The notes: generated by a model not told the origin, from the letters alone. A DNA stretch of 64,000 bases from Nitrospirota bacterium (GCA_963796285.1 CAWCKW010000010.1:15717-79716), one strand, 5' to 3'. Shown: positions 20,915-37,955, counted from the stretch's first letter. Numbers and translations are program-made.

Positions 20915-21030
20915 ATGTTGAATCTCAAATGTCCACTGTGCGCCTCTGAAGCGGTTTATAAATATGGTCATGTAAAAAACAAAAAAAGCACCTCACATGC
21001 GTATTGCGCTGAAGATAGTTTCTCGGCTTC
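20915..21030 (+). pseudogene. Degraded 5' copy of the zinc-ribbon gene at 25049
   Basis: NLKCPLCASEAVYKYGH versus NLTCPACASEAVYKYGH. Shared DNA tgcgcctctgaagcggtttataaata, then frame decay. Confidence 0.7.
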
Positions 21031-21077
21031 ACCTCAAGGTCAATACCTACTGAAACAGGAAATGAGGAGCGTGCGTT

Positions 21078-21899: not shown

Positions 21900-22780
<881 letters not shown>

Positions 22781-22781
<1 letters not shown>

Positions 22782-23599
22782 TGGTAATCATGTCGACCAG
22801 CGTCGAACACCAGTTCAGCCAGGTCATCGCGGCTCAGCGGCGGTCCTGGCAACGCACCCTGACGCTCGGCGCGGCAGTCACGGCCGTAATCGTACTTTGC
22901 TCATGGTTCGTCGGGCTTTTTGACGCTCGTCGGCTGATGGAAGGCGTACCCAGCATCTTGGGCCTGATGCGGGAGGGGTTTCCACCGAACTTCAGGGATG
23001 CGGGAACATGGATCAAACCCCTTTTCGATACAGTAGCCATGAGCATCGGCGGCACTGCGCTCGCCGTCCTGCTGTCTTTTCCCCTTGCCCTGTGCGCGGC
23101 GTCCAATACATCGCCGCACCCGCTCGTTTACTCTGCGGCGCGAGGTGTGCTGAACCTGCTCCGTTCCATTCCGGAGTTGATCATGGGCATAGTGTTCGTT
23201 GCCGCGGTCGGCTTCGGCGCTTTGCCCGGCGTCCTCGCGCTGGGGCTGCATTCGATCGGAATGGTCGGCAAATTCTATGCCGAGGCGATCGAGCTCGTCA
23301 ATAAGGAGCCGGTGGAAGCGGTGCGCGCTGCGGGCGCGAGAAAGCTTCAAGTAATCTTCCACGGCATCCTGCCCCAGGTGCTTCCCCAGATGGCCGACGT
23401 ATCCATTTACCGCTGGGAATATAACTTTCGTGCCTCGACCGTCATGGGCATGGTCGGTGCGGGCGGCATCGGCTTCGAGCTGATGGCGTCACTCAGGATC
23501 ATGCAGTACCAGGATGTTTCAGCAATCCTGCTCGTCATCCTGCTGATGGTCACACTCGTAGACCGCCTTGGTTCTGCATTGCGAAGGAAGTTCAAATAA
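22781..23599 (+). CDS. ptxC: Phosphite ABC transporter permease (PhnE family)
   Basis: [28 protein letters not shown]. Confidence 0.88.
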
Positions 23600-23621
23600 T
23601 TTTGAACGGAGAAAAAAGAGC

Positions 23622-24683
23622 ATGAGACCAAAAGTAGTTATCACCGAATGGGTACACCCCGAAGTCATCGAACGTTTACAAAGGGAGTGCGACGTTGTTC
23701 CCAACGATACACGGGATACGCTGTCGCGTGAGGAGCTTTTACATCGCGCTTCGAATGCACAGGCCATCATGGCATTCATGACCGACCGCATTGATAATGA
23801 CTTTCTCTCCTTATGTCCCGAACTGAAGGTTATAAGCGCCGCGCTCAAGGGCTATGACAATTTCGACGTAGATGCCTGCACCAGGAGAGGAATCTGGTTC
23901 ACCATCGTCCCCGACCTTCTCACCATCCCCACAGCAGAACTGGCGATCGGCCTCCTCATTGGCCTCGGCCGTCATGTACTCGAGGGTGACCGTTTCATAA
24001 GGAGCTGCGCGTTCAAGGGCTGGCGGCCGCAACTGTACGGAACGGGCCTCGCGGGCCGGACGCTCGGTATCATCGGGATGGGTGCAGTAGGACAGGCGGT
24101 CGCCCAACGCCTGGCCGGGTTCGGTATGCGCGCTTTGACCTACAATGATCCGGTTCGGCTTCCCCTGGAGACCGAGGAGGCGTTGCGGCTGTCGCCGACG
24201 TCCTTCGAGGAAGTGATGGCGACGAGCGACTTCGTCCTCCCGCTCACACCCCTGACTCCTGCGACCAGGCATCTTATCGGCCGACAGGAGATCGCCATGA
24301 TGATGCGAGGAAGCTATTTGGTGAACGTGTGCCGCGGTTCCGTCGTGGACGAGCAGGCGGTTGCTGAGGCGCTCGCCGACGGCCATTTAGCAGGGTATGC
24401 CGCCGATGCCTTCGAGCTGGAGGACTGGGCTCTCGACGACCGTCCCCGCATAATCGCACCCGCACTCCTTACCGACGACTCTCACACCCTGTTCACTCCG
24501 CATATCGGATCCGCAGTCGACGACGTCCGGCGCGAGATCGCTATGCAAGCAGCACAGAATATACTCCAGGCGATGAACGGTGAAACGCCGGCGGGTGCGT
24601 TGAATGATCCGATGGTGACTACAGGCAAAGGCCTCCCCGGCCTTTACAAGAGCATTGGAGCGGCCTGTTCTCGCTCACGATAG
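23622..24683 (+). CDS. ptxD: NAD-dependent phosphite dehydrogenase
   Basis: [31 protein letters not shown] Rossmann motif, catalytic [21 protein letters not shown]. Confidence 0.93.
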
Positions 24684-24969
24684 AGCGGCCCGGCGGTGCT
24701 ATCCGTCTGCGCGGTCTTAACAAGGGGTATATGCCTTTCTCTGCATCGAATATCGGCGGCGATTCGGTCGTCGAGGTCCTGCATGAGCTCTTTAGCCCTA
24801 TTTTGGACTCGGTGCCGGATCGCAATGCCTAACTTCGAACATGCAACTCCCGGTGACACTCGGAATGGCGGCCTATTGCTGCTCGGATGATAATGATCGA
24901 TGTCGATGCAGCGGCGTAATCGAAGATCCTTTACGTCCATTGCCGAAGGGAACGGATCATGATAAAAGA

Positions 24970-25013
24970 TTTAACACAATCTTAACATTCCCGTAATACG
25001 GGTGAAATAATGA
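24970..25013 (+). promoter_or_regulatory. Four-unit Pho-box-like array
   Basis: tttaacacaat cttaacattcc cgtaatacggg tgaaataatga, TATAAT at 25019. Confidence 0.72.
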
Positions 25014-25048
25014 GTAGGTATAATCAGTTTAATTAATTTGGATACGTT

Positions 25049-25372
25049 ATGAAGATTATAAAAATGACCAAGAAAACAGACAATCTCACCTGTCCGGCTT
25101 GCGCCTCTGAAGCGGTTTATAAATACGGCCATATCAACAACGGCAAGCAGCGTCTCAGATGCATTTTGTGCGGAAGACAGTTTGTTCTCGGCTTTGCGAG
25201 GCATGAATTGGAGAAGCGTCCAACCTGTCCCCAATGCGGCTTCAAGATGCACCTTTACATGCATGATAAAAAAGCGATTCGATTCAGGTGCTCAGAATAT
25301 CCTGTTTGCAAATCGTATATAAAAATCCCCTTCAAGAAGGAGGTCTCATCTCATGAACTGCTACGTGCATAA
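25049..25372 (+). CDS. Double zinc-ribbon protein (InsA-like N-terminal ribbon plus topoisomerase-type C4 finger)
   Basis: CPAC...KYG...GKQRLRCILCGRQF, then CPQCG...FRCSEYPVC. Confidence 0.7.
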   Translation: MKIIKMTKKTDNLTCPACASEAVYKYGHINNGKQRLRCILCGRQFVLGFARHELEKRPTCPQCGFKMHLYMHDKKAIRFRCSEYPVCKSYIKIPFKKEVSSHELLRA

Positions 25373-25724
25373 TGTGCCGGGAAGACTGCGGATAAAAAGT
25401 TCCTTGTTCAAAAAAAGCTCAGTCCACTATGAGGTTCGAAAAGCCCTCGTGGATATGGGTCATGGTATCGGAACCGCTGAATTCAATCCAACCACAGGCA
25501 GTCTTTTGATTCACTATGATCACAAAGAGGTCTGTCATCAGGACATCCTGCGCACCCTGGAGCATGCCGGCTTCTATCATCCCGACAAAAAGATCACGAA
25601 CGACCAGGTAATCCACCGGGCGACGTCCAAAGCATTCAACGTGGTGGCCAAGGCGGTATCCGGAGCTTTCATTGAAACGGCCCTTCAGGGTTCGGGCTTA
25701 TCATTTCTGGCTTTATTGCTCTAA
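25353..25724 (+). CDS. HMA2-domain protein
   Basis: HNVPGRLRIKS...NPTTGSLLIHYD, aggagg RBS. Confidence 0.75.
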   Translation: MNCYVHNVPGRLRIKSSLFKKSSVHYEVRKALVDMGHGIGTAEFNPTTGSLLIHYDHKEVCHQDILRTLEHAGFYHPDKKITNDQVIHRATSKAFNVVAKAVSGAFIETALQGSGLSFLALLL

Positions 25725-26288
25725 CACAAAGTCCATCTATTCCTTTTCCCAGCATGCACCAGGATCGACGCTGCTCTACTCTCATTTTCACGGAGTTGAG
25801 ACAGGCAGTAAACACGAATGCATCGAATACAAGAACCATACTCATCATGCCATCCTCTCCTCCGTTTCTTATTCGCTGCTACGTATGAATGCACTCCCGT
25901 GGTGTTCAGCCATATCCCGTTAGAAGTCATCCAGCGCGCGCTTGAGCTTTGAGCGATGAGCCTTTTTCAATTCCGGCGGGAGCTTGACGACTTTTATGCC
26001 CCATTCCTCATTTGATTATGCCTGCCTCTGTTAAGCCCTCACACGTACACGAAAAAAGAGAAGGGGCAGCTATTCTTCAAGATCACTTCGTCTGCCTGTC
26101 TTTGGTTATATGCACAGGTTGCCGGGAAAGATGTCGCGGATTTTTGAATCAGTAAGCATTCTATCGAAGCTAGACTTAGTTATATTTCATTACTTGCGCG
26201 TACCGCATCCCGGCATTAGCTTTCCCTTGTGGATTTGCAAGGTCCGATTCATTTACAAGTTCAAAACCGCTATCGGGATCGAGTCTGT

Positions 26289-26549
26289 TCACAACTCCCG
26301 CGAATGGCCCCTCCTGCTTTCTATGTCAGTCGTCGGCGTAGTATCCCGCAGCAGGTCTTTGACGCGCTTTGAGACAAGTGCAGAGAGAAAGTATTTGATC
26401 CGTGCGGTCCGCGAATAGTGCCTCAGCACCATCTGGTAAATGGTCGTAACACGCTCCTTTGGCCGCTTCAGGCTCTGCGCGAGGTTTTCGACCGCGATCT
26501 CGTGATGTCGTGGGCCCGCTTCAATGTCTTGGAGAATGCGTTTGTTCAT
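26289..26549 (-). CDS. DUF3562-like protein
   Basis: HEIAVENLAQSL...ARIKYFLSALVSKRVKDLL, similar to the 14811 ORF. Confidence 0.6.
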   Translation of the reverse strand: MNKRILQDIEAGPRHHEIAVENLAQSLKRPKERVTTIYQMVLRHYSRTARIKYFLSALVSKRVKDLLRDTTPTTDIESRRGHSREL

Positions 26550-26606
26550 GTTGTGTTCCCCCTTCCTCATCCTTGGCTTTTCACCAACAGGCTGCGGGTC
26601 ATAAAA

Positions 26607-27515
26607 TCAGTCCTTTTGGTAGTCCGGAGTGAGCGCATCGTGCGCCACTGTTGTTGCTTCGTGCTGCCGTGTTTCATATCCCTCTAAGTAAATGTCGAAT
26701 AAACCGAATTTCTCCCTCAGCATGTTCTTCATCAGCCTGATGGTTTCACGGCCATTTCCCGATCCGTTCGTCCTGATCCTTGCAACGAGGATCACCTTCT
26801 CCGGTGAAAGACCCCAGATATGCATATCCTTTACATGATGTATTTCAGGGAACGATCGCTGCAGAAAGCTGGAAACTTCGTCGACATCGATCCTGGCAGG
26901 ACTCCCCTCCATCAGGATCTTAACGCTGTCCCTGATCAAGAAAAAGGTCGGATAGGCAGCCAGGCAGCCGATCAGGATGCCGGCAAGGGGGTCCACAACA
27001 TAAAGGTGGGTATATCGTATGATGATGGCGGAACCGATGACACCGACCGAGCCCAGGGTATCGTTCAGGATCAGGAGCAGGGCCCCTTTTATGTTCACGT
27101 CCTTTGAATACCTATACAGTTGAACGAGACCGAAGAGGTTCGCGAAGAGGCCCAGAACGGCAATGACGAGGACTTTATCCGCTTCAATGGGTTGCGGGTG
27201 CAGGATCTTCTGGAAGGCTTCCGTGAAAACATAGAACAGGATGAAGCCAACGAGCATCCCGTTGAACAGGCCGGACAGCACTTTCGCGCGCTCGTACCCG
27301 AAGGTATTGACCTTGTCCGGCTGTCTGCGGGCCAGCCTGGTCACCCAGAGCGCGATGATCTGCCCCGAGATATTGACGGCCATGAACGACGCGTCGGTCA
27401 CGAGGGCGATGCTGTGATAATAGAGCCCCCCGAACAATTCTACGAAGAAATAGGCGATTGTTACGACAAGAACGAGCGTCTGGCCTGTTACGTGCTTTTC
27501 CTCAGTTTCATGCAT
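26607..27515 (-). CDS. Cation diffusion facilitator (CzcD/ZitB-like)
   Basis: SIALVTDASFM, TFGYERAKVL, NDTLGS, DMHIW. Confidence 0.88.
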   Translation of the reverse strand: MHETEEKHVTGQTLVLVVTIAYFFVELFGGLYYHSIALVTDASFMAVNISGQIIALWVTRLARRQPDKVNTFGYERAKVLSGLFNGMLVGFILFYVFTEAFQKILHPQPIEADKVLVIAVLGLFANLFGLVQLYRYSKDVNIKGALLLILNDTLGSVGVIGSAIIIRYTHLYVVDPLAGILIGCLAAYPTFFLIRDSVKILMEGSPARIDVDEVSSFLQRSFPEIHHVKDMHIWGLSPEKVILVARIRTNGSGNGRETIRLMKNMLREKFGLFDIYLEGYETRQHEATTVAHDALTPDYQKD

Positions 27516-27543
27516 GGTTCGCCGGCCCTTCAGTATGCCTGCC

Positions 27544-28743
27544 TCACCCTTTCAGGAGAACCGCCTTGTCAGTCAATTCCCATGGCAGGCCGATATCCAT
27601 TCTTCCTACATGACCGTACGCTGCGAGCTTGCGATAAAAACCGCCCTTGATCTGAGAGGGGAGGTATCGGAGGTTGAACTGGCGTATGATCCCCGCTGTT
27701 CGAAAGTCGAAATTTTTCTCAACGAGATCTGCTATTTTTTGATCAGATTCTTTCCCGGTCCCGAAGGTTTCCACCTGGATGCTCACCGGCCGCGAAAATC
27801 CGATGGAATAACTGAGCTGAACTTCGCAAGAGGTTGCAAGTCCGGCTGCGACGACATTCTTTGCAGCATACCGGGCGGCATAGGCGCCGATCCGGTCGAT
27901 CCTCGAAGGGTCTTTCCCGCTCAAGGCTGCCCCGCTGTGGCGGGAATACTCGCCGTAGGTATCGATTGCGTTCTTTCTCCCGGTCAACCCTGAGTGCATG
28001 GCAGGACCGCCGCCGATGAAGGGACCGTCGGGATTGACGAAGATCCGGGTGTGCACATCCGGTTTGATCTCCTCGTCCTGAAAAACAGGATTCAGCACCA
28101 TCTCCCGAATATCGTCCTGGAGCCGTTTGGCATCGGGCCCGCCTTTGCCGTCGGCCCGTTTCTGGCTTGCAATAATGGTGATGCTGTGAACACGCGACGG
28201 TGTGCCGTCACGGTATTCGATGCCGACCTGGGTCTTGCCGTCGGGCGCAAGATAGTCGAGCGTTTTCTGGAGCCGTACGGAAGTGAGCTTCCGGGCAAGA
28301 CGATGAGCAAGCCAGATCGGAAGTGGCATGAAGGACGCCGTTTGATCACATGCGAAACCGAACACGGTGACCTGGTTCTTGACCGGGACGCGCTCGATCT
28401 CTTCATCGGACATGGCACGCTCATCAACAGGACGACGTTCTTCCTGTGGGAATTCCTTCAAGCTCGTCACAATGCTGCAGGTCTTCGCGTTGAAGGCATG
28501 CTGGTCGTAACCGACCTGGCTTATCACCTGTCGCGCTACATTTGCAAAGTCCATATGAGCAACAGCTGCGAACCTCGCAGCAATAAATACGATCGCCGTG
28601 GAAACGGCGCATTCGGCAATGACCTTCGCATAGGGGTCTTTTTGGAGGTAATGATCGACAACGGCATCGCTGATGATATCGCAGAGCTTGTCAGGATGGC
28701 CTTCGGTCACCGATTCAGAGGTGAACATGAAATCTTTTTTCAT
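27544..28743 (-). CDS. metK: S-adenosylmethionine synthetase paralogue with a divergent active site
   Basis: FTSESVTEGHPDK, DGKTQV, GLTGRK, SGKDP and AAYGH are present, but GAGDQG is replaced by PVKNQV. Confidence 0.85.
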   Translation of the reverse strand: MKKDFMFTSESVTEGHPDKLCDIISDAVVDHYLQKDPYAKVIAECAVSTAIVFIAARFAAVAHMDFANVARQVISQVGYDQHAFNAKTCSIVTSLKEFPQEERRPVDERAMSDEEIERVPVKNQVTVFGFACDQTASFMPLPIWLAHRLARKLTSVRLQKTLDYLAPDGKTQVGIEYRDGTPSRVHSITIIASQKRADGKGGPDAKRLQDDIREMVLNPVFQDEEIKPDVHTRIFVNPDGPFIGGGPAMHSGLTGRKNAIDTYGEYSRHSGAALSGKDPSRIDRIGAYAARYAAKNVVAAGLATSCEVQLSYSIGFSRPVSIQVETFGTGKESDQKIADLVEKNFDFRTAGIIRQFNLRYLPSQIKGGFYRKLAAYGHVGRMDIGLPWELTDKAVLLKG

Positions 28744-28770
28744 TTGACCCTCTCTATGAACTATGCATGC

Positions 28771-31700
28771 TCAAGTAACTGCAAAAACTTGATTGCCGTT
28801 CAATACCGGAACCGGGGCCGTTGAACTGCCATTCAGCACCAACGATGGAGCAGAGATCCTCTTCGTCGCTTCGTTAATGAGCAGGGGAGCGACAGCGGTC
28901 CCGATCGAAATTGCCAGGTCGAGGGGATTCAGCGGGCTCATCCCGAGGAAACTCCGGAGGCCCGGGACGACCAGGGTTAGCGATTGCAATCCCAGCGAGC
29001 CTGTCAGGGCAACGGTGAGATAGTTGTTTGGCGCGAGCCGCGCAGCGTCAAAGATACTGTGGGTCTCGGAACGGTGGCTGATGGCGTGCAGGAGCCCTGC
29101 CGTGACAAAGTTCGTGAAAGCCATCGTGCTGGCTTGGGGCCCCTGCCCGTAGCGCAGGACTCCGTAGCCGTAGGCCGTCAGCGTCCCCGCCGAGATGGTG
29201 GAAGCCTCGAAGAGGAGCCTTTTAAAGTCTGCCGTATTGATGAGCTGTTCCTGGGGATTGCGGGGAGGCCGCAGGAGCACATCCGGCTCGGGCGGTTCCT
29301 GGGCAAGGGCAAGGCCAGGGAAGATGTCCGAGATCATGTTGATCCAGAGAAGCTGCATGACGTTGAACGGTTGTCCCATGCCGGCGGCAAGAGCGGTGAA
29401 CATGATCATGATCTCGCTCGTGTTCTTCGAAAGCATGTACCGGACAGATTTTCGCAAATTGTTGTAGATCGTCCGCCCCTGGCTGATGGCCACGACCATT
29501 GTCTCGAGGTTGTCATCTTCCAGGATCACGTCTGCTACCTCCCGCGCCACGTCAGTCCCCGTGTGTCCCAGAGCGATCCCGATGTCGGCCGCCTTGAGCG
29601 CAGGTCCGTCGTTGATGCCGTCGCCGGTCATGCCAATGACCTTTCCTGCTGCCTGGAGCGCCTGGACGATCTGAAGCTTGTTGGCCGGGCTCACCCGGGC
29701 GAAGACATGGATCCGCCCGGCAAGTGCCGTCATGACCTCGGGTTCAAGCTGTGATAGATTGGTCGAGTCCAGGATCTCCAGTTCCTCGCCCTTGCTCAGA
29801 TTGAGCTCCTTGCCGATGGCATACGCCGTGGGGCTCTGGTCCCCGGTGATCATAACGGTATCGATCCCGGCACGGTGGAACGTGTTGATGAGATTCTTGA
29901 CGCCGCTCCTGACCACATCCGCCATGCCGACGAGTCCGACCCAGACGAGTCCCTGCTGGATGATCTCATCGCTGCGCAGGGTATCTCCGTTGGTCACGGC
30001 ATAGGCTACGGCCAGCACGCGGAGCGCTTCACCGGCCATCCGTTCATTTTCTGCATCGAAGACCGCGCGGGTATCGTTGTCCATCACCAGTTGCCGGCCG
30101 TCCTTGACGTACCATTTGCAGACTGACAGCACATCGGACGGGCTGCCCTTGAGAGCCATAAGCCGCTGCCGGTCATTCGAACTATGCACGGTGCTCATAA
30201 ACTGCCGGTCTTCCGATCGGTAGTTCAGCTTCACGATGGGGTGCTGGGTCCGAAGCGAGTTGACATCCACGCCGGCGCTGAGCGCAAGGTTCACGAGGGC
30301 GTTTTCCGTCGATGAACCCTCGACGAGATAATCTCCTTCCAGTCCCGATACTATCGATTCATTACACAGCACTGACAGATGGAGCAGACGGAGGACGTCC
30401 TCGCTCGTATAGGGATTTATGCTTTTTCCTTCCGCCATGATCCTGCCATTAACAACATCGAGACGGCGCATGCCTGCATGGATCTGGACCACCGACATCT
30501 TGTTCATGGTGATGGTGCCGGTCTTGTCAAGACAGATGGTCTCGACCGAGCCGAGCGTTTCGACGGCGTCAAGGTGACGGATGAGCACATTCAGACCCCG
30601 CATGCGCTTGATGCCGAGCGCGAGGGTCGTCGTCGCAACGGTCGGAAGCCCCTCGGGCACAGCGGCTACAGCAAGGGCAATGGAGGTCTTCAGCATCTGG
30701 AGAAAACCGTAACCACGCAGAATGCCTACGATGAACACGATGCCGCATACAGTGCAGGTGATATACACCAACTGGACCCCCAGGTGGTCCATCTGCCGTT
30801 CCAAGGGCGTGTCGGGCGGCCGCGCTTCTCCCACCATGGTCTGGATCTTCCCGACCTCGGTAAAGCGACCTGTCGCCACCGCGACGGCGCGTCCCTGTCC
30901 TCCCGTAACCAGGGTGCCCATATAGACCATGTTGGTCCGGTCGCCAAGGGGAATGTCCGATACCTTCAGTTCATCGGTGGTTTTTATCGCCGGCATGCTC
31001 TCGCCCGTCAACGCCGACTCATCGATACTCAGATATTTTGCCTCTATGAGACGGGCGTCCGCCGCGACATAGCTTCCCGGTCTTAGCACGAGCAGATCGC
31101 CGGGCACGACCTCTTTGGCATCGATGGTCGTCATGACCCCGCCGCGGATCACGGTTGAGGTCGGCTGCACGAGGTTCTTCAACCCGTGGATGATCTTTTC
31201 CGACTGGCTTTCGGTGACATACCCGATGGAGGAGTTGGTGACGACGACTCCCATGATCACGACAGCATCGGCGAGCCCGCCTGTAGCAACGGAAATGCCG
31301 GCAGCAACGCAGAGGAGAGCTACAGGAAGGGACTTGAACTGATCGAAAAAGATGCTCCAGCCTGAGCGAGGAACGGATTCAGGCAGAATGTTGGGACCAT
31401 ATTGGATGTACAAAAGGCGGGCTGCTTCTTCGGATAAACCGTTTGACGCTGATGTGCCCCATCGCTGCAAGACATCCTTCTTCGCCACACAGTGCCAAGG
31501 TTCTGCCTGCTGGTCCTCTGCATTGGCAACCTGTTTGCGAACAGTCCGCAGGCTCGGCACTTCCTTGCCAGCGGGAGTGTGGGGAGGAGAGACGGCGGTG
31601 CGCACGGGGCGTACCATCACCGTCCCTTTCCCCTGCGGCGTATCAGGGGCACGGCGTTCCTTACCCCCGACCGGGTCTCCGTTGGTACGCTCGACCACGG

Positions 31701-31917
31701 ACTGCAGGAGGGAGGCCACTGCTGATGAATGATTGCCGTTCTGCGAATCGAACAGCACGAGAACGCTTCCCGTGAGGGTGTTAATCGAAACGCTCAGGAT
31801 CCACGTGTGCTGCGCAAGATTCTGCTCGATCTGCTTTTTCAGGGACTCCGAGCGATACAGGCCCTCTACTTTATAACGGGCCCGTCCTTTTACCGATGTA
31901 TGAACGGCCTGGACCAC
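28771..31917 (-). CDS. P2-type (Ca2+-ATPase-like) P-type ATPase with an N-terminal HMA2 domain
   Basis: TGES, PEGL, DKTGT, TGDGIND, LLWINMISD. N-terminus HTSVKGRARY...NTLTGSVLVLF. Confidence 0.92.
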   Translation of the reverse strand: MVQAVHTSVKGRARYKVEGLYRSESLKKQIEQNLAQHTWILSVSINTLTGSVLVLFDSQNGNHSSAVASLLQSVVERTNGDPVGGKERRAPDTPQGKGTVMVRPVRTAVSPPHTPAGKEVPSLRTVRKQVANAEDQQAEPWHCVAKKDVLQRWGTSASNGLSEEAARLLYIQYGPNILPESVPRSGWSIFFDQFKSLPVALLCVAAGISVATGGLADAVVIMGVVVTNSSIGYVTESQSEKIIHGLKNLVQPTSTVIRGGVMTTIDAKEVVPGDLLVLRPGSYVAADARLIEAKYLSIDESALTGESMPAIKTTDELKVSDIPLGDRTNMVYMGTLVTGGQGRAVAVATGRFTEVGKIQTMVGEARPPDTPLERQMDHLGVQLVYITCTVCGIVFIVGILRGYGFLQMLKTSIALAVAAVPEGLPTVATTTLALGIKRMRGLNVLIRHLDAVETLGSVETICLDKTGTITMNKMSVVQIHAGMRRLDVVNGRIMAEGKSINPYTSEDVLRLLHLSVLCNESIVSGLEGDYLVEGSSTENALVNLALSAGVDVNSLRTQHPIVKLNYRSEDRQFMSTVHSSNDRQRLMALKGSPSDVLSVCKWYVKDGRQLVMDNDTRAVFDAENERMAGEALRVLAVAYAVTNGDTLRSDEIIQQGLVWVGLVGMADVVRSGVKNLINTFHRAGIDTVMITGDQSPTAYAIGKELNLSKGEELEILDSTNLSQLEPEVMTALAGRIHVFARVSPANKLQIVQALQAAGKVIGMTGDGINDGPALKAADIGIALGHTGTDVAREVADVILEDDNLETMVVAISQGRTIYNNLRKSVRYMLSKNTSEIMIMFTALAAGMGQPFNVMQLLWINMISDIFPGLALAQEPPEPDVLLRPPRNPQEQLINTADFKRLLFEASTISAGTLTAYGYGVLRYGQGPQASTMAFTNFVTAGLLHAISHRSETHSIFDAARLAPNNYLTVALTGSLGLQSLTLVVPGLRSFLGMSPLNPLDLAISIGTAVAPLLINEATKRISAPSLVLNGSSTAPVPVLNGNQVFAVT

Positions 31918-31972
31918 GGACTATTCCTCCCACAGTGAAATGGAAACCGGTCACAAGCCAGGCGATGACTGA

Positions 31973-32698
31973 TTAAGCCTGTTTCGACTTCGGGAGGGCA
32001 CTGCCCGCTACTTCCTTCACACCTTCAACAACGCCGACAAGCATGTCCTTTACCGCCTTGACTGCCGTGTTGCCGATCAAAGCCGCCGCATCAATCGCGC
32101 CAGTGACTGCAACCTTTGCCACTTCCTCGGCATTCCCCCCGACCTCCTTCGTTGCCTCGATCACGCCATCTACGGCCCTGCGGGCAACCATGGCAACATC
32201 AGCGCCGACCTCGGCAGCACCCTTGACAGCGCCGCTGACGGTCTGTCCTGCCACGGAAATAACATCGCCGCCAACATCGCTTACGCCCATGATCACCCCT
32301 TTTGCCACGCTCTTGGTGCTCAAGATGAGTCCGGTGCCGACCTCTTCAGTGGCCTGAATGGCCCCCTTGACTACATCCTTCGTGATACCGACAGCTTCAT
32401 CGGCCACTGCGCCTGTTGCACGAAGCGTGTTGGATACGATGTTCCTGACGAGGCTGACGATCTCCGCTTCGATCTCGTTGATCCCCTTGAGACTGCTCAC
32501 GACACCCTCTCTCACTGCAGATCCTGCTTTGCCGATGTCCCGGGCTGACGTTTCACTACCTATGGACTTTGCGTTTGTCATGTCTGCTCCTTTAGTTGTT
32601 GTCCTAGTTGTAATCTTCTGATCCGATCCCGATGATGTGCCGTGCGGACCGCGCTTCACTGTCTTCTTCGCTGGTGCCTTTTGTTTGCTGTCACTCAT
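31973..32698 (-). CDS. Ala/Val/Gly-rich protein with tandem 22-aa amphipathic repeats
   Basis: aggagg RBS, at least six consecutive 22-residue units. Confidence 0.75.
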   Translation of the reverse strand: MSDSKQKAPAKKTVKRGPHGTSSGSDQKITTRTTTKGADMTNAKSIGSETSARDIGKAGSAVREGVVSSLKGINEIEAEIVSLVRNIVSNTLRATGAVADEAVGITKDVVKGAIQATEEVGTGLILSTKSVAKGVIMGVSDVGGDVISVAGQTVSGAVKGAAEVGADVAMVARRAVDGVIEATKEVGGNAEEVAKVAVTGAIDAAALIGNTAVKAVKDMLVGVVEGVKEVAGSALPKSKQA

Positions 32699-32876
32699 AA
32701 TATCCTCCTTGCCAAGGTTCACAAAAACTTATCGTATCTTCTTGTATCCTGGATATTTTGATAATTCCGGGAATGGATATCTTGGGAATGCCGAATTGTC
32801 TGCTACTCGAATTTTTCGTAGCTGACAAGGCGGAAAGGAACTGGAAGAGTTCCCGCTTATCTAAGAGCTGCTTATG

Positions 32877-33362
32877 TTATTTCTTTTCCCCGTCTTTTGT
32901 TTTCGAGTAGAGATTGTATGCATACCAGTATGCTGCAGACCACGGTATTGGCCCCGCATTCCCTGACAGGATTTGCACACTACCCGCTATAACTAATGCT
33001 CCGACTGCAAACCCGCTCAGGTCCATATCACCACCCGTGAGGTTCTGTATCTGCCGATCAACGCTCTTGAATGTCTCCCCAAGGTTCCGGTGAAGATTTG
33101 CTGAGGGTACCCTTGAATCCTTTTGTTCCTGTAAAGAAAAAAGGTTCCCGGATCGCGCATACTCCGCAATCTCATGCACCGTCGTTTGGTGAAGCAAGAG
33201 TATACTCCCCGTACCCGGATTCACCTCAATGGAGAGAATGCCCGGACACGCGGCAAGCTGATCCCCCTGGGACTTTAGTGCTGCAAGGTTCCCTTTTTGT
33301 GAGGAGATCCTGATTCGTAATCTCCCGGTCGATGCATGGGCAATGACGGCATCAGGAATCAT
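32877..33362 (-). CDS. HMA2-domain membrane protein
   Basis: HASTGRLRIRI...NPGTGSILLLH, C-terminal hydrophobic segment with PWSAAYWY. Confidence 0.78.
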   Translation of the reverse strand: MIPDAVIAHASTGRLRIRISSQKGNLAALKSQGDQLAACPGILSIEVNPGTGSILLLHQTTVHEIAEYARSGNLFSLQEQKDSRVPSANLHRNLGETFKSVDRQIQNLTGGDMDLSGFAVGALVIAGSVQILSGNAGPIPWSAAYWYAYNLYSKTKDGEKK

Positions 33363-33697
33363 GACGCGGCTGGCCTGCGTTTGGATCTTGCCGCTACCGG
33401 TGCTGCTGCCGCTGCAACAGCCTCTGCAGCCGTTGGTGCTGCCGCAGCTGCTGCTGTCGACTCGGCCAATTCCGCCTTTGCTTCAGCCACAATATCCTCC
33501 GTGATTTCAGCAACCTCGGCAAAAGTTTCCTTGCCGCGTTCATACATCTGCATACCTCCTTTTATTGCGGCTTTTGCCAGAGGCTTCGCGATATTGGCAA
33601 ACAAAGGGATAACTACAGGTGCCAATATTGCTGCTCCGATGCCGATAGCCAGACCAGTAACAATATTACCTTTCAATACATCATCAAATAGTGCCAT
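33359..33697 (-). CDS. DUF5132-like small membrane protein (GxxxG helix plus amphipathic helix)
   Basis: GLAIGIGAAILAP...KPLAKAAIKGG...EDIVAEAKAE, aggagg RBS. Confidence 0.75.
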   Translation of the reverse strand: MALFDDVLKGNIVTGLAIGIGAAILAPVVIPLFANIAKPLAKAAIKGGMQMYERGKETFAEVAEITEDIVAEAKAELAESTAAAAAAPTAAEAVAAAAAPVAARSKRRPAAS

Positions 33698-34239
33698 GAG
33701 ATATCCTCCTTTTATATTTTAAATATTATCTCCTTCATGCTGTGAAGTCTACCTGCTCTTTCATTACTTCCCTACATAGCACTTTTGTAACCAATTCATT
33801 GCGCAGGCCGCTGAAAAAGGATTTATACTGTTGTCCTGAATCCGTTAACATGTTCAGGACAGCTCGACCTTGCTTCTCACCCGTGATTTCATCGATTTAA
33901 GCAAGGCGCTGGATTTCGGTAAACTCGTTTACTTCGGTTAGCATTTATTCTACTTAGCACGTTGAACGCTAACATCCTTTCAGCAGGCAAAGCTTGCCAC
34001 AAGGATCACCCGGCATCCTGCACTAAGTATCCATCGCAAAGAACTTGTGCCAGGTATACTCTTGCCTAGTATGAAAGTGTACAATAATATGTAGAATGGC
34101 GAGAGTATCGAAACGACTTTTTACAGATTATTCCCCATCACGAAAGGAGCACACTGTGAAGGGTAAGAAACGATCGACGTGAACAAAGAGAATCAAACAA
34201 AGAATGACGTGAGTGAATGTCCAGTCGAAAACGCCCTGG

Positions 34240-34266
34240 CTGTAACACAATCTTAACTTGACCTAT
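34240..34266 (+). repeat. 27-bp direct repeat copy 1 (two-unit Pho-like box)
   Basis: ctgtaacacaatcttaacttgacctat, identical at 34815-34841. Confidence 0.8.
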
Positions 34267-34467
34267 GATCAGAGGTGCGGTAGTTTATGACATCTAAAAG
34301 TGATTGATCTCCGCGAGCCGTTACAAATGGTTTACGATGGAATCGACAACACACTTTCGGATAAAAGCAAAGAATCGCTTTCGCGTGTGTTAAAGCGCGG
34401 CTTGGCAGTTACTTCATTGCTTATGAGTATTCAGATGTGAGCTCCAAAGGCATAGAAGGTCATAAAT

Positions 34468-34755
34468 ATGAATTTATTAAATCGCACGGACGCAAAACAG
34501 ATCATTGTGGAATATCTCGGGGAAAGCTTCGGGTCGTACACAGCAAAGATGCCTATCCTCGATATAAACGAGACTGGCGTTAAGGGTCGGAATTTCCTCG
34601 GTAAATGCGCCTTTGAAGAATGTTGGGTCGCGTACATGACGGATAACAGAACTCGCTTCAGCCTGGCTCCCTCTCGCATTATTTGCATTCTGAAGAAGAC
34701 GGGTGAGATTATCTATGACGGCAGCGAAGGCGGCGGGAACCGAGAAAAAGCCTGA
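34468..34755 (+). CDS. Hypothetical protein
   Basis: 95-aa ORF ending IICILKKTGEIIYDGSEG, no recognised family. Confidence 0.5.
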   Translation: MNLLNRTDAKQIIVEYLGESFGSYTAKMPILDINETGVKGRNFLGKCAFEECWVAYMTDNRTRFSLAPSRIICILKKTGEIIYDGSEGGGNREKA

Positions 34756-34814
34756 CGAGCTATCCGAGTATCTGAAGTGCAACCTCCTCTGCCCATAACC
34801 TTACAATACCCCGT

Positions 34815-34841
34815 CTGTAACACAATCTTAACTTGACCTAT
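34815..34841 (+). repeat. 27-bp direct repeat copy 2 (two-unit Pho-like box) upstream of arsC
   Basis: Identical to 34240-34266. Confidence 0.8.
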
Positions 34842-34960
34842 TTATAGATTTATAGATATCCTATAATAATTATCCACCCTTTTTAATTCCGTTCTTTTTT
34901 TTATCTAGATTGTTTTTAAATTGGTATTTTTTCTACAGAATGCGATAGGAGATTGCAATT

Positions 34961-35401
34961 ATGACCAAACCAAAGGCGTTATTCCTTTGTACAGGGAACT
35001 CAGCCCGCAGCCAAATGGCTGAAGCATTTCTCAGAAAATATGCTGGGGAGAAGTATGAAGTTCACAGTGCAGGTTTGGAGCCAAAAAGAATTAATCCTTA
35101 TACAATTCGTGTAATGGAGGAAGTTGGCGTCAGTTTGAATGGTTATAAATCAAAAAGTGTGAAAGAATATATGGGGAAGGTACATGTCGCATATTTTTTC
35201 ACCGTCTGCGATCAAGCTGAAAAAAACTGTCCGCGAACTTTTCTGATGAGCGTAGGGCGACACGTCCGTTGGGGGTTTGAAGACCCCGCAGCATTTGAGG
35301 GAACAGATGAGGAAAAGCTATCAAAATTCCGGGAAGTTCGAGACCAGATTGACCAAAAAATCATAGAGTGGTTAGGAGAACAAGGCGTTACTGTTCCCTG
35401 A
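34961..35401 (+). CDS. arsC: Thioredoxin-type arsenate reductase (LMW-PTP fold)
   Basis: CTGNSARSQMAE P-loop, resolving cysteines in VCDQAEKNCP, WGFEDP, FREVRDQI. Confidence 0.88.
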   Translation: MTKPKALFLCTGNSARSQMAEAFLRKYAGEKYEVHSAGLEPKRINPYTIRVMEEVGVSLNGYKSKSVKEYMGKVHVAYFFTVCDQAEKNCPRTFLMSVGRHVRWGFEDPAAFEGTDEEKLSKFREVRDQIDQKIIEWLGEQGVTVP

Positions 35402-35460
35402 ACAACACATTGAGGAAAAAACATGGGGGCAGCCTTTGACAGGAGACACTTTATGGCGGT

Positions 35461-35667
35461 ATGGGCATGAAGATTCAAGACATTAAGGACATTGCAAAGA
35501 AAAAAGGCGTTAATGCTGGGAAAATGAATAAAACAGACCTTATTAGGGCTATTCGAATAGCAGAAGGGAGCAACGTATGTTTTGCTACCTTCTCTATCCA
35601 GACATGCAGTCAAAAGAATTGTTTATGGCGCGCAGACTGCATGGAGGGCATGCTCAAGCCGGACTAA
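35461..35667 (+). CDS. Small SAP/Rho-N-like domain protein with a Cys-rich tail
   Basis: IKDIAKKKGV...KTDLIRAIRIAEG..CF....C....CLWRADC. Confidence 0.65.
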   Translation: MGMKIQDIKDIAKKKGVNAGKMNKTDLIRAIRIAEGSNVCFATFSIQTCSQKNCLWRADCMEGMLKPD

Positions 35668-35735
35668 CAATGCTTTCCATCTGACGGCGCTGCGGTTTAC
35701 TCCACAGGCTAGAATAAAGAGTAAGGAGTCGAACA

Positions 35736-36290
35736 ATGACAAACACATTAACAACTGTACTCGAGAAAGTTCAGGAAGGTCTTGGACAGGGCGGCGTTTT
35801 AGATCAGATCGATAAACTTTTTCGTAAGCAGCAAAGAATCAATCTGTTTGAAAAGCTCGAAAAGATCGAGAACAAAGAGGTAGATAATTTTCCTGTTGTG
35901 CTTTATAAGAGCATAATGCCAAACGGGAAAAAACAGCCTGCCTTATTGCGCTTTTACCTTCCGTCTTGGAAAGATCATGATGAAATCTTTTGGCAATCGC
36001 TCGGTGATTATATTATTCTCGCGATGCACCGAGTGACAGATGTCGAATTCGATAGCACCAGAGGCCGGATAAAGGTTAAATATTTTCCCAAGATAAAAGG
36101 CCGGATAAAACATCCGGAAGACATCAGGGTGATCATCCAAAAAATTGCTTATCTTGTGGATACAGAAGGTTTGCCGACAGACTTCACTCGCTTCCGACGC
36201 ATGACAGAACGACGTGATAGCTTGGGCGAGATGAGCAAAGAACAGGCCGCACTTATCGGCGTGGCATTAAAGCTTATCCAAATACCTTAG
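35736..36290 (+). CDS. Hypothetical protein
   Basis: 184-aa ORF with aaggag RBS, low GC. Confidence 0.55.
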   Translation: MTNTLTTVLEKVQEGLGQGGVLDQIDKLFRKQQRINLFEKLEKIENKEVDNFPVVLYKSIMPNGKKQPALLRFYLPSWKDHDEIFWQSLGDYIILAMHRVTDVEFDSTRGRIKVKYFPKIKGRIKHPEDIRVIIQKIAYLVDTEGLPTDFTRFRRMTERRDSLGEMSKEQAALIGVALKLIQIP

Positions 36291-36338
36291 TAGCAATTTA
36301 TTTGCTGAAAATCACGTCCTCCCCGTAAAGGGCTAAGC

Positions 36339-36455
36339 TGGAGCTTCGAAGACCCCTCGACGTTGACCGGCACTGACGAGGAAAAGCTCCAAGCCGTCAG
36401 AAGAATACGCGATCAGATTTACCAGCAGATCGTTGAGTGGCTGAAGACGGCCTGA
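36339..36455 (+). pseudogene. C-terminal remnant of a second arsC
   Basis: Translates WSFEDPSTLTGTDEEKLQAVRRIRDQIYQQIVEWLKTA*, matching the end of the 34961 ORF. Confidence 0.75.
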
Positions 36456-36494
36456 CCAGGAACCGTACAAAAGCCGCAAAATAAACCCGCCGAA

Positions 36495-36538
36495 TTTAAC
36501 GTAAACTTCACTTCTGCTTCATTCTCCTGTAACAGCCC
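36495..36538 (+). promoter_or_regulatory. Four-unit Pho-box-like array upstream of repeated ORF copy 2
   Basis: tttaacgtaaa cttcacttctg cttcattctcc tgtaacagccc, TATCAT at 36544. Confidence 0.7.
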
Positions 36539-36633
36539 TCCTGTATCATTGACACCATAAATACAAATGCGTACCACGCCATGGAGAAGGTCGGACGAGT
36601 ATTTGGCGAAATCAGAAGCTCAAGGAGGATCAC

Positions 36634-36909
36634 ATGAACCACATCATCATCAAGATTGAAAGCGGAGTTGTCGACGAAGTCTACTACACCGAACCGGTTT
36701 CCGTGACCGTCGTTGACGATGACGTCATCGAGGGTGGAGAAACGTTTGAGGGTCGTATGAAAAAAGCAGTTCTGTCCATGATGCCCGATCAGCGCGTCAG
36801 GCCCGAGGAAATCGAGCAGGTGGTCAAAAGGCTGGTGCTCGAATGCAGGCGCCCTGCTGACAGGCGACTGTCTGGGCGGATCATGATCGATGTCGACGCA
36901 GCGGCATAA
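36634..36909 (+). CDS. Unknown 91-aa protein, copy 2 of 3
   Basis: aaggagga RBS, paralogue of 20501-20776. Confidence 0.85.
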   Translation: MNHIIIKIESGVVDEVYYTEPVSVTVVDDDVIEGGETFEGRMKKAVLSMMPDQRVRPEEIEQVVKRLVLECRRPADRRLSGRIMIDVDAAA

Positions 36910-36958
36910 GCGACGATCGTTTCTGTCAATTTCCGGGTGGGCAGATCGCGATAAAACA

Positions 36959-37002
36959 TTTAACCAAAACTTAACACCATTGTCATAAAGATGTAGCGAG
37001 GG
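36959..37002 (+). promoter_or_regulatory. Four-unit Pho-box-like array upstream of the second pst-like operon
   Basis: tttaaccaaaa cttaacaccat tgtcataaaga tgtagcgaggg, TACAAT at 37008. Confidence 0.75.
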
Positions 37003-37073
37003 TGGCGTACAATTCGAACCAGATATAAAGAGACCATAATAAAAGAGGCATTATCTCATCTTTGGAGGACCCA

Positions 37074-37955
37074 ATGAAACAGCTCATGGCAGGTATTGTT
37101 CTATTTGCAGTTCTCGCACTCAGTTCGAACGCCGGTGCGCAGGAGTCCAAGATCTTCGACGGGATAATCCGCATCGGCGGTTCGACGACCCTGCTTCCCG
37201 TAATTGCGGACAGCGCCAGCCAATTCATGGAGAAGTTCGAGACATGGGACAAAGTCGACTCCGCGCTTCCCAAGGTGCCGATCCTGATTTACGTGACAGG
37301 CGGCGGCTCAGGGTTCGGCGTAAAAGCGGTCACGGACGGCACGGTCATGATCGGGATGGCATCGAGGGACATCAAGGAGAAAGAAAAGGCCGCACTCGGG
37401 CAGCATAAAGAATATCTGATCAGCAAGGACTGCGTCGCCTTCGCCGTGAACAAAAAGAATCCTCTTGCGAAAATCGAAAATCTCACCCGCGAGGATGTCG
37501 TCCGGATCTTTTCCGGTGAAGCCGCTACGTTCAAGGATATCAAGGCAACTCTTCCCAATAAGCCGATTCTCGTGCAGATGCGCGATGCTGCTGGCGGGTC
37601 CACGGAAGTCCTCCAGAAGGAGGTCCTGAAAAACAAGACTTTCACACAAAAGGCGATCCAGGTGCCGTCTCAGGGCGCAAACCTTAAAAAACTACAGACA
37701 AATACCAGCGTCATCGGCTATATATCGTCGGTGCTCGCACTCCAGAGCCCCGAGCTCAAAGTTTTTCGGTTCGAGGGCGTTGCCCCCACGAACGAGAATG
37801 TCATAAACGGCAAATACTCGCTGACGCGTCCGCTCCTGCTTCTGGTGAAAGGAGATCCCGAGCCCGCCGTTGAAAAGTTCATCACGTTCATGCTCAATGA
37901 AGGTCAAAAAACCGTTGAAGAGCACGGCTACGTTCCGGTAAAAGCTGTCCAATGA
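37074..37955 (+). CDS. PstS-family substrate-binding protein (divergent)
   Basis: Signal peptide, IGGSTT, GGGSGFG, MASR, YSLTRPL. Confidence 0.82.
   Translation: MKQLMAGIVLFAVLALSSNAGAQESKIFDGIIRIGGSTTLLPVIADSASQFMEKFETWDKVDSALPKVPILIYVTGGGSGFGVKAVTDGTVMIGMASRDIKEKEKAALGQHKEYLISKDCVAFAVNKKNPLAKIENLTREDVVRIFSGEAATFKDIKATLPNKPILVQMRDAAGGSTEVLQKEVLKNKTFTQKAIQVPSQGANLKKLQTNTSVIGYISSVLALQSPELKVFRFEGVAPTNENVINGKYSLTRPLLLLVKGDPEPAVEKFITFMLNEGQKTVEEHGYVPVKAVQ

Follow-up and report, generated by a model that had tools for sequence, protein, structure and literature searches.

The closest described parallels to the locus reported here are two mineral-organelle loci, the ferrosome (fez) clusters, whose products form membrane-bounded granules rich in Fe and P, and the ccyA locus of cyanobacteria. 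The ferrosome preprint (10.1101/2020.01.10.902569) describes an R-rich N-terminus, with RxR or RxRxR, on FezB, on related P1B ATPases and on FezC. As described there, FezB belongs to the P1B-6 ATPases and carries D[Y/F]SCA and HNxxT in its metal-binding transmembrane helices, FezC combines an HMA-annotated N-terminus with two transmembrane helices, its membrane part being related to DUF4405, and FezA is a small protein with GxxxG in a hydrophobic region. The same preprint associates fez clusters with the iron-homeostasis genes Feo, Fur and DtxR, and its main text names DUF4405 and DUF2202, not DUF5132. According to the Microcystis preprint (10.1101/2024.07.07.602159), ccyA serves as the marker gene for amorphous CaCO3 inside cells; in Microcystis aeruginosa PCC 7806 it is flanked by two DUF5132 genes, two CoBaHMA genes and the Ca/H exchanger gene cax, and one DUF5132 gene, a CoBaHMA-DUF454 gene and cax are co-expressed with it. 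Here, we describe a cluster of six co-oriented genes on the minus strand, at positions 26607-33697 of a 64,000-nucleotide (nt) stretch of DNA from a Nitrospirota bacterium (GCA_963796285.1, CAWCKW010000010.1:15717-79716; the whole stretch is called the window below). The cluster encodes small membrane proteins, a repeat protein, a P2-type ATPase fused to a CoBaHMA domain, and an altered MetK, and the core of this co-directional gene set is a conserved operon in several phyla. Our preferred reading, which we hold at something short of an even chance, is that the operon builds a calcium-rich intracellular storage body in a lipid-bounded compartment, in a manner linked to phosphate.

The six open reading frames (ORFs) of the cluster are given below (aa, amino acids; bit scores are followed by the cut-off of the model).

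33359-33697, minus strand: DUF5132 protein, 112 aa (PF17195, E 6.8e-12)
32877-33362, minus strand: CoBaHMA (HMA_2) membrane-hairpin protein, 161 aa (PF19991 at residues 7-147, 54.6 bits, cut-off 30)
31973-32722, minus strand: 22-residue-repeat protein (REP), 249 aa (no family in Pfam or NCBIfam)
28771-31917, minus strand: HMA_2-fused P2-type ATPase, 1048 aa (HMA_2 at residues 4-60, with E1-E2_ATPase, Cation_ATPase_N and Cation_ATPase_C)
27544-28743, minus strand: MetK paralog, 399 aa (TIGR01034, 376 bits, cut-off 309)
26607-27515, minus strand: CDF divalent-cation transporter, ZitB-like, 302 aa (TIGR01297, 192 bits, cut-off 82)

A preliminary description of the window had listed these six co-oriented genes with the same identities. 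All six ORFs were found at these minus-strand coordinates, and the profile matches agree. From the DUF5132 gene to the CDF gene, the intergenic gaps are -4, 154, 55, 27 and 28 nt, the start of the hairpin-protein gene overlapping the DUF5132 stop by 4 nt. A consensus scan for minus-strand terminators between the cluster genes revealed none that was convincing and nothing above expectation, and an Rfam scan of positions 24000-37500 gave a single match, which was sub-threshold. The CDF scored 163 bits with the ZitB model, below the cut-off of 408, and reached no equivalog model.

To compare the cluster across genomes, the ATPase was used as the query in a scan of one genome per GTDB species, which gave 76 loci. 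Loci L001-L038 are close relatives, with ATPase identities from 90% down to 45%, and L039-L076 are ordinary unfused P2 ATPases (29-39%). The closest ATPase relatives (70-90%) belong to metagenome-assembled genomes (MAGs) labelled Nitrospirota or Thermodesulfovibrionales, very probably the lineage of the window itself. Full-length relatives with 45-57% identity, including the N-terminal domain, were found in MAGs labelled Planctomycetota, Desulfobulbaceae, Desulfobacteraceae, Syntrophorhabdaceae, Dissulfurispiraceae, Binatia, Desulfotignum and others; in the Desulfurivibrio locus L019, the ATPase match starts only at residue 111. Nitrospirota-, Desulfobulbaceae- and Desulfobacteraceae-labelled MAGs, and likewise those labelled Syntrophorhabdaceae, Binatia and Dissulfurispiraceae, share the core order DUF5132, HMA_2 protein, (REP), ATPase, (MetK). 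REP and the MetK paralog are additions to the core found in one large sub-clade.

Presence was counted by a scripted tblastn of the window proteins against the loci, with at least 1700 nt required for upstream counts and at least 1300 nt for downstream counts. The ATPase N-terminus is present in 29 of the 38 close loci, 27 of which have at least 1700 nt upstream. Just upstream of the ATPase and on the same strand, these 27 loci contain the DUF5132 gene (24/27), the hairpin-protein gene (25/27) and REP (18/27). Neither small protein was found in L007 and L024, and in L021 a DUF5132-family ORF missed by tblastn was found by clustering. The MetK paralog directly follows the ATPase in 24 of 33 loci. 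The CDF gene is full length or nearly so in L001, L005, L006, L009, L010, L011 and L020, ends at a contig edge in L008, and is reduced to fragments in L004, L007, L015 and L017; it is a lineage-specific accessory outside the core. Thus, the expectation that the gene set is conserved as a unit held for the core, which recurs far beyond one lineage, but not for the CDF.

A reduced cluster was observed in a cultured alphaproteobacterium, at positions 6646-15708 of the megaplasmid pMVF16-1 of Microvirga sp. VF16 (L078). This locus contains two CYTH-domain ORFs, two DUF5132 genes, the fused ATPase gene, a DUF445 gene and HMA_2-like genes, and has no REP and no MetK; its ATPase shows 41-44% identity. 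A DUF445 gene was also seen after MetK in L023.

An approximately 80-residue linker follows the CoBaHMA domain at residues 4-60 of the window ATPase (39.3 bits against a cut-off of 30). Among solved structures, the nearest are human SPCA1 (E 2.3e-152, full-length alignment), Listeria LMCA1 (4e-142) and SERCA2 (2e-118), and P1B models score far below P2 models on this protein. The motifs PEGL, YMLSKNTSE and WINMISD, previously noted as marks of a P2 rather than a P1B pump, are all present. The P2 domain set, PEGLP and the nearest structures agree with that distinction, and by its sequence the pump falls into the P2A-like class of SPCA, LMCA1 and SERCA.

An alignment of 61 complete ATPase sequences was used to compare the fused pumps (n = 28; window plus 27 loci) with the others. 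In all 28, an N-terminal H-x4-GRxR is combined with the M4 motif AA[VI]PEGLP, the M6 motif LW[IV]N..[ST]D, and Asn plus Glu in M5. DKTGT is likewise kept in 28/28 and was covered in the alignment with characterised P2A pumps. We take the conserved M4, M5 and M6 residues to be the side chains of SERCA Ca site II and most of those of site I. A FastTree phylogeny placed the 28 fused ATPases, to the exclusion of all unfused ones, in a single clade (support 0.97), which splits into a REP-bearing group and a second group comprising L021, L022, L025-L027, L037 and L038 (support 0.77). The N-terminal 140 residues are common to 94 protein clusters (90% identity), nearly all of which have PF19991 plus P2 domains; where these clusters had been given names, the names were only "Ca2+-transporting ATPase" or similar. 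Because of the kinship with SPCA1, LMCA1 and SERCA and the conserved Ca-site residues, a Ca-type substrate is the best inference for the pump, with Mn also possible.

A second calcium link is seen in the neighbourhood. A CaCA antiporter gene (Na_Ca_ex, E 2e-48) directly follows the ATPase gene in L026, L027, L037 and L038, and L019 and L035 have one in the vicinity; the best NCBIfam model is "calcium/sodium antiporter", with a score below the cut-off. Some loci contain a further ATPase gene. Those of L015 and L017 are MgtA-like. In L025 (6024-8300, minus strand), a CoBaHMA-fused P1B ATPase with SCPC is encoded divergently beside the DUF5132, hairpin-protein and P2-ATPase genes, so that both pump classes carry the same N-terminal domain in one locus. 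This second L025 ATPase was considered as a FezB candidate and rejected, since it is of the P1B type with SCPC and lacks the FezB motif.

A CoBaHMA domain is also present in the hairpin protein. Pfam HMA_2 corresponds to the CoBaHMA family according to the Microcystis preprint (10.1101/2024.07.07.602159), and the calcyanin paper defines CoBaHMA within the HMA superfamily by an additional strand beta0 bearing a conserved His, by conserved basic residues in beta1 and beta2, and by the lack of CxxC. The cited authors note many architectures, consider a regulatory role probable and propose an interaction with anionic lipid. The AlphaFold2 model of the window hairpin protein shows the strand and helix order b0-b1-a1-b2-b3-a2-b4 in residues 1-78, where the block-mean predicted local distance difference test score (pLDDT) is 89-97. 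Toward the C-terminus, the model contains an amphipathic helix (residues 90-108) and two hairpin helices (115-132 and 142-160) with pLDDT near 60. The window protein has the N-terminal motif H-x4-GRxRxR; in the hairpin family (n = 17), R14 and R16 are invariant and H9 nearly so. No CxxC was found in the window CoBaHMA sequences. With a predicted beta0 fold, the His, the beta1 basic residues and no CxxC, the modelled hairpin protein conforms in these respects to the published definition of CoBaHMA. A Foldseek search of the model against the PDB returned nothing at E <= 0.001, and its weak matches were to metallochaperone HMA, YajR YAM and KipI structures; HMA, YAM and KipI are relatives named for CoBaHMA in the calcyanin paper.

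The DUF5132 protein of the window starts with a hydrophobic helix containing G15xxxG19xG21 (highest 19-residue hydropathy 2.44, at residue 12), followed by a conserved Lys/Glu-rich helix and an Ala-rich tail. In 16 of 16 family sequences, G19, P39, K42, K46, E64, D68 and E72 are invariant, and position 15 varies. Since G19 is the sole invariant glycine, GxxxG is not a strict feature of the family; the earlier label of a DUF5132-like GxxxG membrane protein therefore suits the window protein but not the family as a whole. A complex prediction for the DUF5132 and hairpin proteins scored 0.02 against a mark of 0.32, which speaks neither for nor against binding. In our literature search, DUF5132 was mentioned only in the Microcystis study (10.1101/2024.07.07.602159).

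REP is the best-conserved protein of the cluster, with tblastn identities of 78-82% in L018, L023 and L030, where the ATPase shows 54-57%, and with 79 invariant columns across 12 sequences. Its core of approximately 185 residues consists of roughly eight 22-residue amphipathic units rich in V (19%), A (16%) and G (14%). The 22-residue repeat proposed earlier was recovered by autocorrelation against 200 shuffles (lag 11, z = 4.7; lag 22, z = 11.0; lag 44, z = 7.5; lag 66, z = 6.3). The REP gene contains no DNA tandem repeat, and the periodicity exists at the protein level only. The helical hydrophobic moment is 1.31, compared with 0.57 +/- 0.08 for shuffles. Both terminal tails vary in sequence and are often basic, and the N-terminal one of the window protein is Lys-rich.

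A REP profile search of 1.84 billion representatives gave 697 proteins at E <= 0.001, of which 320 remained at 1e-10 and 72 at 1e-30, and a comparison with plasmids, run with a low-complexity filter that may have masked the query, gave no match. In sub-threshold Pfam comparisons, a Senescence domain was matched by 5 of 12 members (best E 0.0012) and Phasin_2 by 3 of 12. Among 30 distant relatives, CsmC, Phasin_2 and Apolipoprotein were matched once each, all sub-threshold, and there was no Senescence match. In the Atlas, a cluster named "Phasin family protein" ranks second nearest to REP (score 0.93). The parts added to REP in its relatives include a C-terminal MucR/Ros zinc finger, a CsbD-like N-terminus, GGDEF, and a weak, sub-threshold receiver-domain match; P0002, P0007, P0008 and P0260 are the fusions to the MucR/Ros zinc-finger domain. 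The nucleic-acid-binding module appended to some relatives resembles the phasin PhaF. Two fusions connect REP to its cluster partners: P0174 joins the CoBaHMA-hairpin protein to REP in a single ORF, and P0172 joins REP to the start of the P2 ATPase, although its middle part looks doubtful. We infer that REP is a self-associating coat or scaffold on a lipid surface.

The MetK paralog was compared in an alignment of Escherichia coli K-12 MetK with 25 paralogs, namely that of the window and 24 cluster-linked ones. The residue numbering agreed with E. coli MetK at all 13 positions checked, and E55 was checked likewise. The triphosphate, Mg and K ligands H14, D16, K165, K245, K265 and D271 are kept in 25/25 and E42 and R244 in 24/25. 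A different picture emerged at E55, Q98, D238, K269 and D118, which we take to be the methionine-contacting residues of the E. coli enzyme. E55 is replaced by R in 21 paralogs, Q in 3 and V in 1. Q98 is hydrophobic in 24/25 and G in one, while D238 is H and K269 is R in all 25. D118 is kept in only 2/25, with N, H or E in the other 23, and the GAGDQG loop is replaced. The atypical character attributed to this MetK is confirmed by these residues. Since the triphosphate and metal ligands are kept and the methionine residues replaced, the paralog probably still binds ATP and handles triphosphate, methionine not being its usual partner. The lineage, whose tblastn identity is 70-74% across phyla, may represent a neofunctionalised adenosyltransferase or triphosphatase.

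CYTH proteins belong to the triphosphate-tunnel enzymes. In the Microvirga locus, the two CYTH-domain ORFs, one of which looks degraded beyond its N-terminal part, lie just upstream of the two DUF5132 genes and the fused ATPase gene. The presence of CYTH in place of MetK in this single locus hints that triphosphate chemistry is a shared need. F18, a family of about 185 aa encoded beside the CaCA gene in the second sub-clade, was considered as a CYTH relative and rejected, being a membrane protein with one helix, a C-domain that is helical, and no match to a Pfam family.

The cluster is surrounded in the window by phosphate-scavenging genes and by further small genes, as follows.

26289-26570, minus strand: DUF3562 protein, 93 aa (PF12085, 30.2 bits, cut-off 26.3), 36 nt downstream of the CDF gene
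25353-25724, plus strand: small CoBaHMA-like protein, 123 aa (PF19991, 29.7 bits, just below the cut-off of 30)
25049-25372, plus strand: double zinc-ribbon protein, 107 aa (IS1/IS1595-type N-terminal Zn-binding domain, 47 bits, cut-off 28)
21078-24683, plus strand: upstream genes for an ABC ATPase, a phosphate/phosphite/phosphonate-binding protein (TIGR01098, 265 bits, cut-off 112), a permease and a 2-hydroxyacid dehydrogenase
34961-35401, downstream side: ArsC-type low-molecular-weight phosphatase
37062-40584, downstream side: PstS-family protein, two permeases and an ATPase
7833-8528: PhoB-like regulator (best model PhoB, 280 bits, below the cut-off of 296)

The zinc-ribbon and small CoBaHMA genes diverge from the cluster, overlap each other by 20 nt, and co-occur with the cluster in other loci too. 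Relatives were found in 22/38 loci for the small CoBaHMA protein, 17/38 for the zinc-ribbon protein and 11/38 for DUF3562, the last being encoded on the same strand downstream of MetK or the CDF (L001, L004-L006, L009-L012, L015, L017 and L020). The small CoBaHMA protein has the motif H-x4-GRLRIK and its hydropathy maximum at residues 105-123; because its extreme C-terminus is hydrophobic, it looks tail-anchored. A Get3/ArsA-family ATPase gene (TIGR00345, 273 bits, cut-off 135) adjoins the small CoBaHMA gene in L035 and L036, and a ParA-like ATPase is encoded beside it in L027. The zinc-ribbon protein also gave a sub-threshold match to a Topo-type Zn ribbon. A second zinc-ribbon paralog was observed at 20873-21148, just upstream of the phosphonate-type ABC genes, and in Nitrospirota loci a second paralog was observed upstream of DUF5132 too.

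Beyond the Pst genes lie three type I phosphodiesterase-family ORFs and the genes for GT21, an OlsF-like double acyltransferase and an LPG_synthase_TM protein. These genes, together with the phosphonate/phosphite-type ABC, Pst and PhoB-like genes, bear out the phosphate-starvation surroundings claimed in the preliminary description. The overlapping ORFs at 41738-42247 and 42211-42864 match positions 2-124 and 158-324 of PF01663 and look like one frameshift-split phosphodiesterase gene. At 44391-48593, the genes for GT21, the OlsF-like protein (Acyltransf_2 plus Acetyltransf_5) and the LPG_synthase_TM protein stand in a row, plausibly a set for phosphorus-free membrane lipids. The layout of 21078-24683 recalls phosphite-oxidation (ptx) operons; with a dehydrogenase (D-2-hydroxyacid type) that scores below every equivalog cut-off, this is a tentative lead. 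A 184-aa protein without a family, encoded at 35736-36290, is kept near the cluster in L001, L005, L006, L013 and L021 (59-87% identity). An exact 24-nt direct repeat (34240-34263 and 34815-34838) has no other copy in the window, with 0 expected in shuffles. Its copies flank approximately 550 nt of AT-rich DNA in the interval that separates the cluster from the ArsC-like gene; this stretch contains small ORFs. On the plus strand the repeat holds CTGTAAC-N4-TCTTAAC.

A scan of the window for Pho-box-like sites (CTGTAAC-N4-CTGTAAC) gave 7 sites, compared with 3.9 expected and a shuffle maximum of 9, and none was upstream of the cluster. Therefore, we make no Pho-box claim. Outside the window, phosphate genes were seen beside the cluster in 6 of 17 mapped loci, a lower bound, because the neighbours were annotated only in part. 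They encode a PhoB-like regulator in L015, PhnD in L026 and L037, UgpB/UgpC/GlpR-like proteins in L027, UgpB/UgpC-like proteins together with a PstS-family/OmpA fusion in L021, and PhoX in L036, where the gene precedes the cluster by approximately 1 kb on its upstream side.

How might these parts act together? Under phosphate limitation, the pump would transport Ca2+, and possibly Mn2+, out of the cytoplasm and into a lumen enclosed by lipid. The membrane of this compartment would be shaped or marked by the DUF5132 and CoBaHMA-hairpin proteins, and the basic face of the CoBaHMA domain would contact anionic lipid or another polyanion and regulate the pump. REP would coat the cytoplasmic face, as phasins, perilipins and apolipoproteins coat lipid surfaces, and the MetK-like enzyme would carry out an ATP or triphosphate reaction other than ordinary S-adenosylmethionine synthesis. 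This would yield a storage body rich in Ca, as carbonate or (poly)phosphate, and comparable to ferrosomes and to the compartments of intracellular amorphous calcium carbonate. P2A pumps drive ions outward or lumen-ward. The operon, its pump class and its domain architectures are observed; the compartment, its ion and its regulation are proposed. Four points favour the compartment: the fez and ccyA parallels, the coat-like REP and its hairpin fusion, the Get3- and ParA-like neighbours, and this direction of transport.

Several observations weigh against a storage compartment. LMCA1 and other characterised P2A pumps of bacteria are located in the cytoplasmic membrane, where they simply export Ca2+. 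The window pump stays below the NCBIfam cut-offs of the Ca-ATPase equivalogs (PMR1-type, 621 against 798; SERCA-type, about 520 against 703; PMCA-type, 421 against 507), and the position aligned with what we take to be E908 of SERCA is G in the Nitrospirota group and mostly Q elsewhere, so that ion and stoichiometry are uncertain. CoBaHMA occurs in many architectures, and its presence therefore does not imply an organelle. REP has no Pfam or NCBIfam family above threshold and no solved relative (best E 1.6, chance level), and its AlphaFold2 model, four long helices with pLDDT 53, is of low confidence. The sub-threshold similarities of REP all point to lipid-surface proteins, yet composition alone could give them, and they are no proof of homology. 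Neither the second sub-clade (L021, L022, L025-L027, L034, L037 and L038) nor the Microvirga locus has REP. No phosphate gene was seen among the annotated neighbours of 11 of the 17 mapped loci. Finally, all close carriers are uncultured MAGs, and in every carrier the compartment is predicted from genes.

Alternatively, the pump, together with the CDF or CaCA transporters where present, could expel Ca2+, Zn2+ or Mn2+ across the cytoplasmic membrane toward the envelope during phosphate starvation, which we regard as a real possibility, if a doubtful one. Such export might metallate secreted Pho-regulon phosphatases or dispose of cations from polyphosphate or phospholipid use, with the small proteins as regulators or assembly factors, a purpose we would assert just as hesitantly. 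PhoX and PhoD need Ca, and NPP-type enzymes need Zn. Consistent with export, PhoX is encoded near the cluster in L036, phosphodiesterase, Pst and phosphonate-type genes flank the cluster in the window, PstS-like, PhnD, Ugp-like and PhoB-like neighbours occur at other loci, and LMCA1, a plasma-membrane exporter, is the nearest characterised bacterial relative. An R-rich P1B ATPase is reportedly required for the metallation of secreted proteins, judging by a title among the references of the ferrosome preprint. The preprint also names CtpC as an R-rich relative (10.1101/2020.01.10.902569), and we counted both statements in favor of export. However, export leaves no role for REP, the most conserved cluster protein, nor for the MetK paralog, the Get3- and ParA-like neighbours or the hairpin-REP fusion, and the CDF is dispensable, being decayed in several loci. 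If the pump proved to be a plain exporter, the cluster would still define a new family of regulated Ca pumps, of modest interest.

The lipid-related features could also be explained by membrane-lipid homeostasis, in which, as phosphate limitation leads to the replacement of anionic phospholipids, CoBaHMA would sense the loss of anionic lipid, REP, as a lipid-binding amphipathic protein and perhaps a distant relative of the senescence domain, would buffer or move lipid, and the pump would adjust divalent cations at the altered membrane. We consider this improbable. The candidate genes for phosphorus-free lipids at 44391-48593, the interaction of CoBaHMA with anionic lipid proposed by its authors, and the sub-threshold Senescence match in 5/12 REP members are in line with it. 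Senescence domains are reported to bind lipid droplets and cardiolipin and to transfer lipid (PMC10801920, PMC8079945, PMC3084803). In contrast, all REP matches are sub-threshold, the 30 distant relatives show no Senescence match, and lipid genes beside the cluster were seen only in the window. Homeostasis of this kind also leaves a Ca-type pump as the invariant core, and the CaCA antiporters, unexplained.

It is very improbable that the genes are chance neighbours, or one recently transferred island, with no joint function. Recent transfer could account for the high identity of REP (78-82%) and MetK (70-74%) across phyla, and taxonomic labels may be imperfect since all close carriers are MAGs. 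However, the ATPase has diverged to 45-57% identity with gene order kept, the clade is deeply subdivided and its parts differ in their accessory sets, the start and stop codons of paired genes overlap, and cluster components are fused in single ORFs. Least probable is a true iron-storing ferrosome cluster, an identity suggested by the R-rich ATPase N-terminus, the HMA two-helix protein and the GxxxG protein but already contradicted by the predicted pump class, with PEGLP and P2 domains in place of D[Y/F]SCA and HNxxT, and by the neighbourhood, in which no Feo, Fur, DtxR or ferritin-like gene was seen in the window or the inspected loci.

A compartment loaded by the Ca-type pump would bear on calcium bodies found outside the cyanobacteria. 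Thermodesulfovibrionales and Pseudomonadota are reported to form intracellular Ca bodies without a known determinant, and the determinants of non-cyanobacterial intracellular Ca carbonate are stated to be unknown (PMC12710302, PMC11773610). One of these two reports describes the bodies as bounded by a lipid bilayer and mentions P-type Ca pumps suspected in Achromatium, and in one of them the genomes are reported to contain no P-type Ca pump (PMC11773610, PMC12710302). We think it rather unlikely, and still worth stating, that the cluster is the missing module for lipid-bounded Ca bodies, of amorphous carbonate or acidocalcisome-type Ca-polyphosphate, in bacteria without calcyanin. The fuller version, in which the pho regulon would switch on the module and the MetK-derived enzyme would serve the mineral, seems to us about equally unlikely. 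A literature search, with the fez family tables and the 2024 CoBaHMA paper outside its reach, gave no description of the cluster, of REP or of the altered MetK. The analysis thus provides a concrete set of 5-9 genes that shares parts with two mineral-organelle loci, fez and ccyA, and, as by-products, an uncharacterised REP family, a MetK lineage with a rebuilt pocket and a recurrent link between Ca pumping and phosphate scavenging.

Compared with the described systems, the pump resembles SPCA1, LMCA1 and SERCA in its full-length alignment, DKTGT, PEGL and the Ca-site residues in M4-M6, and it differs in the added N-terminal CoBaHMA domain and linker, in G or Q at the E908 position, and in scores below the equivalog cut-offs. 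REP is like phasins, perilipins, apolipoproteins and chlorosome envelope proteins in its repeated amphipathic helices; it matches none of them at family threshold and is far more conserved than lipid-surface coat proteins usually are. Acidocalcisomes and polyphosphate-Ca bodies have a Ca-ATPase and a CDF-type Zn transporter in a phosphate-regulated setting, as does the cluster. A triphosphate-site enzyme beside the pump (the MetK paralog or, in one locus, the Microvirga CYTH proteins) adds to this likeness, whereas neither the window nor the inspected loci showed a homolog of H+-pyrophosphatase, PPK or VTC.

With fez clusters, the window cluster shares the R-rich ATPase N-terminus (GRxR in 28/28), the arrangement in one operon and the occurrence in anaerobes, and its separate R-rich HMA two-helix protein and small protein with GxxxG (in the window sequence) resemble FezC and FezA at the level of motifs and architecture. 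The pumps differ, P2A-like with PEGLP and Cation_ATPase_N/_C here and P1B-6 there, as do the contexts, phosphate here and iron there. The cluster has the additional REP and MetK-like genes and no DUF4405, DUF2202 or FeoA components; in the window hairpin protein, DUF4405 gave no match at E <= 0.01. The idea of a ferrosome-like scaffold, put forward when the window was first described, therefore stands as a parallel in R-rich CoBaHMA and GxxxG architecture but not for the P1B-6 pump, the iron context or DUF4405. The ccyA locus differs in having a Ca/H exchanger instead of a P-type pump, a DUF454-like hairpin, calcyanin with three GlyZip repeats, and cyanobacterial hosts. What it has in common with the window cluster is DUF5132 (a transmembrane segment plus a long helix), CoBaHMA with a C-terminal helical hairpin, and a Ca transporter. 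Because these three components are shared with a calcium-mineral locus, we consider the ccyA locus a closer published parallel than the ferrosome.

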